Source: an uncultured Candidatus Saccharibacteria bacterium (lineage in GTDB: Bacteria > Patescibacteriota > Saccharimonadia > Saccharimonadales > Saccharimonadaceae). From it: a DNA stretch of 64,000 nt. This document shows, piece after piece, positions 25,314-28,287 of the stretch. Made by a program: the position numbers and the translations under genes. The notes beneath the pieces are model-generated. The model was not told the DNA's origin and did no database searches. It worked only from the letters and a program-made list of their open reading frames with translations. Each line of letters begins with the position of its first letter. The stretch's first letter is position 1. The stretch covers positions 5,222 to 69,221 of the forward strand of contig CAYYYH010000001.1 of assembly GCA_964476395.1 (NCBI GenBank), written 5' to 3'.

Positions 25314-25352
25314 TTGTCTCACTCTCCCCACGACGTTTTCACTAACCACCTC

Positions 25353-25381
25353 TTGACTTTTTCAACCACTCGCGCTATAAT
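25353..25381 (+). promoter_or_regulatory. Promoter with no downstream ORF (drives candidate sRNA)
   Basis: TTGACT-17-TATAAT. Confidence 0.8.
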
Positions 25382-25387
25382 AAAACC

Positions 25388-25439
25388 ATATTCGGGGATA
25401 CCCGTCCACCCTAATCGAAAGATTAGGGGACATTTTTTT
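25388..25439 (+). ncRNA. Candidate ~52-nt small RNA convergent on the PemK-like gene
   Basis: Promoter, hairpin CGGG-GATA-CCCG, terminator GTCC(A)CCCTAATC-GAAA-GATTAGGGGAC plus T7 reaching the PemK stop codon. Confidence 0.6.
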
Positions 25440-25845: not shown

Positions 25846-25923
25846 TTTATTTCCAACTACCCTACCACACCCACTCCGCTAAATCAACCCAACCAACACT
25901 CTTATGCCAATCCACCCCTTAAA
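25846..25923. repeat. 78-bp direct repeat, copy 1
   Basis: 72/78 identical to 28106-28183; C/A-rich on plus strand, non-palindromic. Confidence 0.92.
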
Positions 25924-25934
25924 TTTATGTCCGC

Positions 25935-27231: not shown

Positions 27232-27807
27232 TCATTCTTCCTCGCCTATCACCAAATCATTTTCATAAATCAAATTGATAATTATCGCAGAAAAATCAAT
27301 CATTTGTTCAGCATCCTTCTTTGTTAAAAACTTAATCTCGTGGGTAGCATCGTTGCCTTTCTTTCGAATTATGTCTACCCACTTCTTTGAACCCCTCGGA
27401 ATATAATTCTCCTTATCAAGATAGTCGACGTAGTCCATGAAACTCAAACCTTCTTTTGCACCCAAATTTACACAGATGTTCATCAAAAGCTTCCTACAAC
27501 ACATTCCCGCAGCAGTAAAAGCATTCACGCTATAGGCCGCTCTGGCCTCTTCATATATTTTTTTCACTTCTAGCGGAATTGGTAAATCAAAATACTTTCC
27601 ATACTTCGGACCAGGAAATTGTTTAACCCCGGACAGCATATTAAAAAAAGTTGGCGACAAACAATTATGACAGATATAAATCTTAAGCTTTGGGTATTTA
27701 CTATTAAAATAGCCAACCTCTGAACATATTTCCCTACCACAATACGAACAGACATAAGTTTTACTATCTATTTTTTCCGAACCATACCAACCAGTAGAAT
27801 TACTCAT
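27232..27807 (-). CDS. DUF4145 (HEPN-like) protein with N-terminal Zn finger
   Basis: Start likely ATG 27807 after TGG-TATAAT; CSYC/CHNC, YEEARAAYSVNAFTAAGMCCRKLL, RKKGNDATH. Confidence 0.8.
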   Translation of the reverse strand: MSNSTGWYGSEKIDSKTYVCSYCGREICSEVGYFNSKYPKLKIYICHNCLSPTFFNMLSGVKQFPGPKYGKYFDLPIPLEVKKIYEEARAAYSVNAFTAAGMCCRKLLMNICVNLGAKEGLSFMDYVDYLDKENYIPRGSKKWVDIIRKKGNDATHEIKFLTKKDAEQMIDFSAIIINLIYENDLVIGEEE

Positions 27808-27824
27808 ATCACATATTATACCAC

Positions 27825-27880
27825 AAAAAAGAGGGCGATGTCCCGCATATATCCAATGCAGGTCCTGCCCCCCATCGCCC
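27825..27880 (-). ncRNA. Candidate ~55-nt structured small RNA downstream of CdiA-CT-like gene
   Basis: Promoter TTGACT(27906-27911)-16-TATAAT(27884-27889); outer stem GGGCGATG/CATCGCCC, inner hairpin CCTGCAT/ATGCGGG, then T6. Confidence 0.6.
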
Positions 27881-27894
27881 CTCATTATAGCGCA

Positions 27895-28110
27895 TCATTT
27901 CATAAAGTCAAGTATTTTTCCTCTCTTAGAAACAACCATCAAACGCTGTAAACTTTTTGATCGTTCGAATTCCCGCCGTAATTCATTTGTGCACTTTGAT
28001 TGATGACGCTTTGTCCTGCGTAAATCCACAATAACATAACGAGACTGTTTCACCGCTTTCTGAATCGTATTCGCCATGAGATATTTACTTTCTCCAATCG
28101 GTGATTTTAT
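27895..28110 (-). pseudogene. 5'-truncated CdiA C-terminal-like (tRNase-type) nuclease
   Basis: EIKSP...NTIQKAVKQSRYVIVDLRRT...LMVVSKRGKILDF matches C-terminal half of solo CdiA_C-like nucleases as I recall them; sequence upstream of EIK is the 78-bp repeat. Confidence 0.6.
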
Positions 28111-28183
28111 TTCCAACCACCCTACCACACCCACTCCGCTAAATCAACCCTGCCATCACTATTATGCCAATCCACCCCTAAAA
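28106..28183. repeat. 78-bp direct repeat, copy 2
   Basis: 72/78 identical to 25846-25923. Confidence 0.92.
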
Positions 28184-28198
28184 TCGAAACCCGAACCC

Positions 28199-28227
28199 TT
28201 GACTTTTTCAACCTCCCAACCTATAAT
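28199..28227 (+). promoter_or_regulatory. Promoter of abiF-like module
   Basis: TTGACT-17-TATAAT; shares CTTGACTTTTTCAACC-N7-CTATAATAAAA with 25352-25385. Confidence 0.85.
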
Positions 28228-28233
28228 AAAATC

Positions 28234-28287
28234 AACATCTCCTCCAGGCTTGGTTACGGCCAGCACACTTGGAGGAGTTCTGTTTGT
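28234..28287 (+). ncRNA. abiF-type structured leader RNA (candidate RNA antitoxin)
   Basis: Stem CTCCTCCAGG(28239-28248)/CTTGGAGGAG(28268-28277) enclosing TGGTT-AC-GGCCA hairpin, between promoter and Abi gene. Confidence 0.65.

Follow-up and report, generated by a model that had tools for sequence, protein, structure and literature searches.

A solo CdiA-CT-like nuclease family in Saccharibacteria and its candidate hairpin RNA partner

Closest described systems

[quoted passage not shown] The locus described here, from an uncultured Candidatus Saccharibacteria bacterium, shares this arrangement. It also resembles the type III systems in having family-specific RNAs, in the occurrence of some tandem RNA units, and in its setting among defence and TA genes. 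As far as can be read from sequence alone, a conserved structured noncoding RNA takes the place of a protein antitoxin. The presumed toxin, however, is a PD-(D/E)xK protein of the CdiA-CT type and not a ToxN, CptN or TenpN protein. In type III systems the repeat array lies upstream of the toxin gene with a terminator in between, whereas here the RNA lies downstream and its promoter is located in the last codons of the toxin gene. Furthermore, the type III RNAs are processed pseudoknot repeats, whereas here a single hairpin is usual and arrays of two to four units occur in a minority of the loci.

The protein itself resembles CdiA-CT(II) Bp1026b, known together with CdiI from structure 4G6V, in its HMM match, its fold (TM 0.71) and its acidic and lysine residues. 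The PF18451 members CdiA-CTII-Bp1026b and SitA3 have been tabulated as tRNases (PMC9990079). In contrast to contact-dependent inhibition (CDI) systems, the nuclease described here stands alone as a protein of about 127 aa. It is not attached to a CdiA filament or to a pre-toxin or delivery domain, and its loci have neither CdiB nor a CdiI-like neighbor. In CDI loci the CdiI immunity gene immediately follows the toxin sequence, whereas here a conserved RNA is found in that place. By these features, we assign the nuclease to the CdiA_C family as a member that stands outside any CDI system.

The enterobacterial sRNAs DapZ and MicL, which are derived from 3′-UTRs, are Hfq-dependent and base-pair with their targets in trans. 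They share with the present RNA a promoter within the 3′ end of the upstream coding sequence and a terminator that is common to the sRNA and the mRNA. The present RNA differs in that it co-diversifies with the adjacent protein, and in that no antisense target was found in the toxin start region: duplexes of the sRNA with the region of toxin translation start had a mean energy z of −0.01 over 24 loci, no better than those of shuffled sRNAs. The RNA is in sense orientation, and base pairing of the type I kind was not found.

The same CdiA_C domain occurs C-terminal to Phage_min_cap2/VG15 in phage MuF-type polymorphic toxins, where nested hairpins also follow the gene. These differ in being fused virion proteins of 385–560 aa, and their hairpins often have no U-run. 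Capsid-fused carriers of this kind were present on IMG/VR contigs (L124–L136) and in 29 Streptococcus Javan prophages. A hairpin lies past the stop codon of the fused CdiA_C gene in Javan345 (L138, 1916–2024) and Javan46 (L139, 1994–2092); its core is conserved between the two prophages and the changes in the outer stem are compensating. Further downstream, the Javan-type loci contain small ORFs, which are possible protein immunity genes. In the literature on CdiA-CT we found no paper joining CdiA-CT with an RNA antitoxin, and in the literature on Saccharibacteria or Patescibacteria with type III TA systems or noncoding RNA the module was not found described.

The nuclease gene and the hairpin RNA in the window

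The whole stretch of DNA that was analyzed, 64,000 nt long, is referred to here as the window. The ORF, promoter and hairpin RNA of the module are all on its minus strand. The ORF (27895–28134, −) encodes 79 aa when read from a GTG codon, and a 60-aa call starting at M20 is on record. It matched the Pfam family CdiA_C (PF18451) over profile positions 13–81 of 81 with an E-value of 1.5e-8 and a score of 35.1 bits, the cut-off being 26.6. This HMM search bears out the preliminary description of the locus, made from the DNA letters and their translations, in so far as it had proposed a nuclease of a CdiA-CT-like family. What had been taken for the gene, however, is an N-terminally truncated fragment. 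Homologues have 126–132 aa, and alignments place the remnant at approximately residues 52–127 of the 127-aa full-length form, with its start at about residue 52–55 (near W55). The reading frame 5′ of the ORF is blocked by stop codons. The catalytic-type residue set comprises E18, D47, E56 and K58 in the numbering of a full-length homologue, P0012. The window copy keeps E-x-K and lacks the conserved E18 and D47, so that two of the four residues are missing. Judged by what is left of this set, it is a remnant of the CdiA_C family and does not have the status of a functional member.

A repeat search revealed a 79-nt direct repeat, D1, with copy 1 at 25846–25924, just upstream of a PemK-like gene, and copy 2, which is 92% identical to it, at 28106–28184. 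The two copies flank a cassette of 2.26 kb. The E-I-K codons of the nuclease remnant are supplied by the minus-strand end of D1 copy 2, GGAAATAAA, and from this overlap the truncation junction of the nuclease gene is assigned to D1 copy 2. A second repeat, D2 (37 nt, 84% identical, 25352–25388 and 28198–28234, +), is a near-consensus TTGACT-17-TATAAT promoter in two copies. One copy is positioned to drive an RNA convergent with the PemK-like gene, and the other the leader of an Abi_2 gene. Copy 2 of D2 is 14 nt from copy 2 of D1, and from this proximity it seems that promoter modules were reused during rearrangement of the cassette.

The −35 hexamer TTGACT (27911–27906, −) is dual-coded in the codons CTT GAC TTT for L-D-F at the C-terminus of the nuclease. 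It begins 14 nt before the stop, as it does in most homologues. The stop codon TGA occupies 27897–27895 (−), and the −10 hexamer TATAAT (27889–27884, −) follows 5 nt after it. The proposed position of this promoter, with the −35 in the last nuclease codons and the −10 just past the stop, was thus confirmed. The spacer is 16 nt long and 11 of 12 positions match the consensus. Since the region is AT-rich and contained 10 promoter-like matches where 7.9 were expected, a single match is not above chance, and the window promoter owes its significance to conservation in the homologues.

The RNA that follows (27825–27877, −) was delimited using a covariance model, covariation and folds, and belongs to the class that we call A. 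It matched the covariance model with 68.3 bits (E-value 6e-22). The outer stem GGGGGC/GCCCUC pairs 27872–27867 with 27836–27831, the internal loops are AGGA/ACAUC, and the inner stem CCUGCAU/AUGCGGG pairs 27862–27856 with 27848–27842. The loop UGGAUAU is at 27855–27849 and the U6 terminator tail at 27830–27825. The hairpin has a minimum free energy (MFE) of −21.1 kcal/mol with a z of −2.8, and none of 200 shuffled sequences folded equally well. The inner stem CCTGCAT/ATGCGGG and the U6 of the hairpin as originally drawn are present, but the outer stem then proposed, GGGCGAUG/CAUCGCCC, is not the conserved one. That pairing (−21.7 kcal/mol) is found in the window copy alone. The family-conserved outer-stem fold has −19.9 kcal/mol and becomes the MFE structure when the transcript begins at least 7 nt after the −10 box. 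With the Rfam 15 covariance models, there was no match in the window at gathering scores and none around the locus at E-values up to 10; a search of 15 related loci covering all RNA classes returned only tRNAs and noise.

By these signatures, the window locus is a decayed module in which a dead toxin fragment adjoins an intact orphan RNA gene. With the toxin dead and the RNA gene kept, the RNA would have no cognate toxin in the genome to neutralize.

The adjacent DUF4145 gene had been named as another possible owner of the RNA. This we reject because the RNA accompanies the nuclease into many unrelated contexts, and the DUF4145 gene moreover has its own TGnTATAAT promoter past the U-run. The gene (27232–27807, −) encodes 191 aa from an ATG at 27807 and weakly matches the PADLOC single-gene defence candidate PD-T7-4 (E-value 7.5e-8). 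Its TGnTATAAT box (27823–27815) ends about 7 nt before the ATG, and the corresponding −35 (GGGACA) lies inside the RNA hairpin. The short distance from the −10 box to the ATG suggests that the DUF4145 mRNA may be leaderless.

The nuclease family and its RNAs

Full-length homologues are solo proteins of 126–132 aa that are 53–74% identical to the window ORF; wider relatives, also solo proteins, have 125–165 aa. An AF2 model of the full-length homologue P0012 had a pLDDT of 92.9. In a Foldseek search with this model the sole strong match in the PDB was 4G6V_A, the CdiA-CT of B. pseudomallei 1026b (E-value 2.9e-7, TM 0.71/0.69), and weak structural matches to other PD-(D/E)xK nucleases were also obtained. 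A sequence profile run against the PDB matched only 4g6v as well. Across orthologues and paralogues D47, E56 and K58 are invariant and E18 is present in at least 90% of the sequences, which corresponds to a PD...ExK pattern. Searches with PADLOC and NCBIfam matched nothing for the nuclease, and Pfam yielded CdiA_C alone.

The family comprises 2,037 clusters (50% identity) at E-values up to 1e-3 among 1.84 billion representatives, and nearly all of the best 150 of these 2,037 clusters have a length of 125–140 aa. No relative of the nuclease was found among the PLSDB plasmids. Within the window's own family, 32 of 151 genomes had matches to PF18451, as compared with 6 of 401 sampled genomes of the phylum. 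Some 700-kb genomes among the carriers have up to 12 copies. The relatives are Candidatus Saccharibacteria, including some Nanosyncoccus, mostly from ruminant guts. The module, as identified from these matches, is widespread in gut Saccharibacteria.

The host genome of the window (677 kb, 98.9% complete) contains six CdiA_C copies. The five further paralogues, located at C6:282–653(−), C20:13088–13342(−), C5:34242–34610(+), C14:19060–19311(+) and C6:16385–16735(+) of this genome (G000), scored 37.9–62.4 bits with PF18451 and are 27–43% identical; one of them has an internal TAA. All six copies have the same layout with a promoter at the stop, and their hairpin RNAs are different. The layout also occurs in family members outside Saccharibacteria, namely L047, L039 (Elusimicrobiota) and L048 (a Lachnospiraceae contig). 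Of these, L047 has an 11/12 promoter and a hairpin, and L048 combines a truncated gene with an RNA resembling class A. Such members suggest transfer between gut phyla. Full-length toxin genes have an apparent −10 box about 7–9 nt before the start codon (L001:3985–4003, L003:335–376), a distance that may leave the toxin mRNA with little or no leader.

For all loci, a fixed rule was applied that called for a promoter with at least 9 of 12 matches and a −35 starting 5–21 nt before the stop, and then for a hairpin with a folding energy of at most −10 kcal/mol and T4 behind it. Of the 38 close loci, which come from named genomes, 33 had a promoter at the stop, as had 49 of 60 loci sampled family-wide. 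The complete combination of promoter, hairpin and T-run was present in 32 of the close loci and in 38 of the broad-family loci (63–84%). Control frames of at least 120 codons from the window's own genome (841 in total) had a promoter at the stop in 42 cases and the full composite in 11 (1.3%); three of these 11 frames are family members. In the homologues, C-terminal codons for (L/I/V)-(D/E)-(F/I) dual-code the −35, and the −10 starts 3–9 nt past the first base of the stop codon. In L001, L003 and L004 a promoter with a 17-nt spacer has the same after-stop layout, and a nearly identical hairpin follows. The preliminary description had raised the question of a conserved downstream RNA in full-length solo homologues, and these do keep the stop-embedded promoter and a covarying hairpin RNA.

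In the module RNA an outer stem of 6 bp and an inner stem of 7 bp are separated by a conserved asymmetric internal loop; the inner stem is capped by a loop of 7–8 nt, and the RNA ends in a U-run terminator. In the class A/B RNAs 88% of the cells are paired, a value in which helix 2 is under-counted for class B because the class-B inner stems are one column out of register in the covariance model; counted separately, class B is 99% paired. Double changes occur at 10 of 13 pairs. The class A/B covariation score was reached by none of 500 shuffles, and slid controls were 36–55% paired. G-U pairs far outnumber A-C in the stems, which fits an RNA with the same orientation as the nuclease gene.

Among 20 class-A loci the identity was 87.6% for the RNA, 67.5% for the coding sequence, 35.7% for third codon positions and 60.7% for the spacer. 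Synonymous sites in the nuclease coding sequence are saturated. The higher identity of the RNA as compared to the coding sequence indicates far stronger constraint on the hairpin, loops included, than on the adjoining gene. There are at least seven RNA classes. In a quick IQ-TREE phylogeny they are clustered by protein clade: 19 label changes were counted, where shuffling gave 47 on average. The count rests on crude regex labels with 43 of 93 rows unlabelled, and linkage alone would also give such clustering. The loops were compared by eye with anticodon, T-loop and acceptor-stem features, and tRNA mimicry was dismissed as there was no consistent match across the classes.

Some loci deviate from the common pattern. 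Locus L046 was considered as a toxin without RNA and discarded, since its different 3′ end is only about 130 nt from the contig end; the protein is nearly identical to class-B members. In three class-A loci (L030, L031 and L034) both partners of the conserved inner-stem U-G wobble have changed, so that an A faces an A. This coordinated change hints that the position is a recognition feature, beyond plain base pairing. A subfamily with EVIK, EVLK or EVVK tails at the C-terminus (L051, L063, L066, L068) has a downstream hairpin, and in these loci no recognizable sigma-70 promoter was found at the stop. The RNA of this subfamily may be a 3′ UTR only or may have a different promoter.

The absence of a protein immunity gene, observed initially beside the window copy, extends to the family. 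All ORFs of 50 aa or more within 1.5 kb at 38 loci were compared with one another by BLAST; no shared neighbor protein gene was found and no flanking protein family was common to the 38 loci. Widely shared frames lie antisense within the nuclease coding sequence, and were therefore treated as artefacts of its conservation.

Promoter-bearing RNA genes without an intact nuclease occur in the window, on contig C5 of the same genome, and in L040, L117, L118 and L121, the last three of which are among 14 metagenome contigs found by an RNA search. Nuclease remnants are present in L119 and in contig C2 of genome G534. In L117 and L121 the sole surviving nuclease sequence is the stretch of about 11 nt that forms the −35 box. 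The orphan class-A RNA genes of these two contigs (L117:1400–1640(−), L121:1700–1960) directly follow an XRE-type helix-turn-helix gene. The orphan class-B RNA of the window's genome (C5:34101–34150(−)) is head-to-head with the C5 paralogue, and this genome lacks an intact toxin for both class A and class B. Toxin genes seem to be lost before RNA genes, but the 5:1 ratio of target sizes would by itself lead to a bias of about this strength, so we gave this pattern little weight.

Tandem arrays of two to four hairpin units behind one promoter are present in L028 (1745–1945), L045 (1760–1858), L091, L114 (45–128) and L121 (1872–1956). The array of L028 mixes two RNA sub-types. Such arrays recall the repeat arrays of type III antitoxins.

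Explanations for the nuclease–RNA pair

We consider it probable, although well short of certain, that nuclease and RNA make up a type III-like toxin/RNA-antitoxin module in which both the toxin fold and the layout are new. The presumed toxin would be the solo PD-(D/E)xK protein of about 127 aa, a homologue of the CdiA-CT(II) Bp1026b tRNase. The small RNA, of some 50 nt, is predicted to begin about 7 nt past the −10 box. A constitutive promoter of its own would produce it in excess, it would arise in addition as the 3′ end of the toxin mRNA, and it would bind and neutralize the cognate nuclease as a type III-like RNA antitoxin. In the window the toxin half was removed at the 79-nt repeat, and the promoter and RNA gene were left intact. 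Transcription of the RNA, its binding to the protein, the toxicity of the nuclease and its neutralization are what we infer from this arrangement. The architecture and conservation described above lend support to the RNA-antitoxin role that was suggested for the window locus at the outset, and which we keep as a putative role. Several observations fit an RNA antitoxin less well. Most loci have one hairpin, whereas known type III antitoxins are repeat arrays that undergo processing. The toxin mRNA, moreover, has this RNA as its 3′ end, and there it may act in cis on stability or autoregulation. The subfamily with EVIK-type tails retains the hairpin with no recognizable promoter at the stop, and the small ORFs downstream of the capsid-fused phage relatives could be protein immunity genes.

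A more far-reaching proposal is possible but doubtful. The CdiA_C domain is neutralized by the CdiI protein in proteobacterial CDI. According to this proposal, small cognate hairpin RNAs would do so in Saccharibacteria and perhaps also in phage MuF-type toxins, those of streptococcal prophages among them. Orphan RNAs such as that of the window would be retained because they confer immunity to incoming toxins of their class, and the classes of RNA would amount to a specificity code evolving together with the nuclease.

The tight linkage of RNA and protein and their joint diversification would also be expected if the nuclease needed the RNA as a cofactor or guide, or had it as a dedicated substrate, so that the two acted as a ribonucleoprotein effector, and the conserved internal loops do suggest a specific protein-binding site. 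We nevertheless regard this explanation as unlikely. The loop sequences are constant within each class whereas those of guides would vary, RNA genes with an intact promoter persist where the nuclease is broken or deleted, and up to 12 copies per 700-kb genome better suits selfish TA modules.

The orphan RNA genes also bear on an explanation in which the hairpin is a cis-acting 3′-UTR element, that is, a terminator, an mRNA stabilizer or a site of nuclease autoregulation, and the embedded promoter is secondary. These genes retain the promoter and have no upstream coding sequence to regulate. The two promoter boxes, 17 nt apart, keep a fixed offset from the stop across paralogues that are only 27–40% identical, and loop and bulge conservation is well above what a terminator needs. 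A cis role is consistent with the fact that the toxin mRNA must traverse the hairpin and has the same U-run end, and with the one subfamily that has the hairpin and no recognizable promoter, but on balance we find it improbable as the full explanation.

A plain intrinsic terminator combined with a chance promoter-like sequence arising from the conserved L-D-F codons is very improbable. The U-run hairpin would end the nuclease transcript in any case, and promoter-like matches are common in this AT-rich region (10 against 7.9 expected), but the composite occurs in 1.3% of control frames as compared to 63–84% of family loci. Furthermore, conservation of the RNA is far above that of synonymous sites, covariation extends to the inner stem, the loops are fixed, and there are orphan copies and tandem arrays. 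A DNA-level element, such as a folded attC-like recombination or cassette site at the 3′ end of a mobile cassette gene, would suit the many unrelated contexts of the module and the repeat-bracketed cassette of the window copy, but we give it hardly any credence because nearly every copy has a promoter before the hairpin and a U-run after it, G-U pairs are tolerated and A-C pairs are not, the sequence class follows the adjacent protein clade and not any recombinase, and the truncation junction is in the 79-nt repeat and not at the hairpin.

If the RNA is the antidote of the nuclease, a large new family would join the few known systems of a protein toxin and an RNA antitoxin, with a toxin fold unrelated to that of the known type III toxins and a gene layout that is new. 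The same toxin domain would then be countered by the CdiI protein in one lineage and by an RNA in another. An RNA antidote would explain why many toxin-like genes of CPR bacteria seem to have no antitoxin, and the RNA classes with their cognate nucleases would be a natural set of specific, compact RNA–protein pairs. The window locus would record a path of module decay in which the toxin is lost and the RNA gene retained.

In the window's own genome, four small genes outside the family (126–191 codons) likewise combine a promoter-like site at the stop with a hairpin and T-run behind it. Their stop offsets along the named strand are 68016 on C2 (+), 71371 on C2 (−), 35783 on C6 (+) and 1021 on C14 (+). 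These genes may represent further small-protein/RNA pairs.
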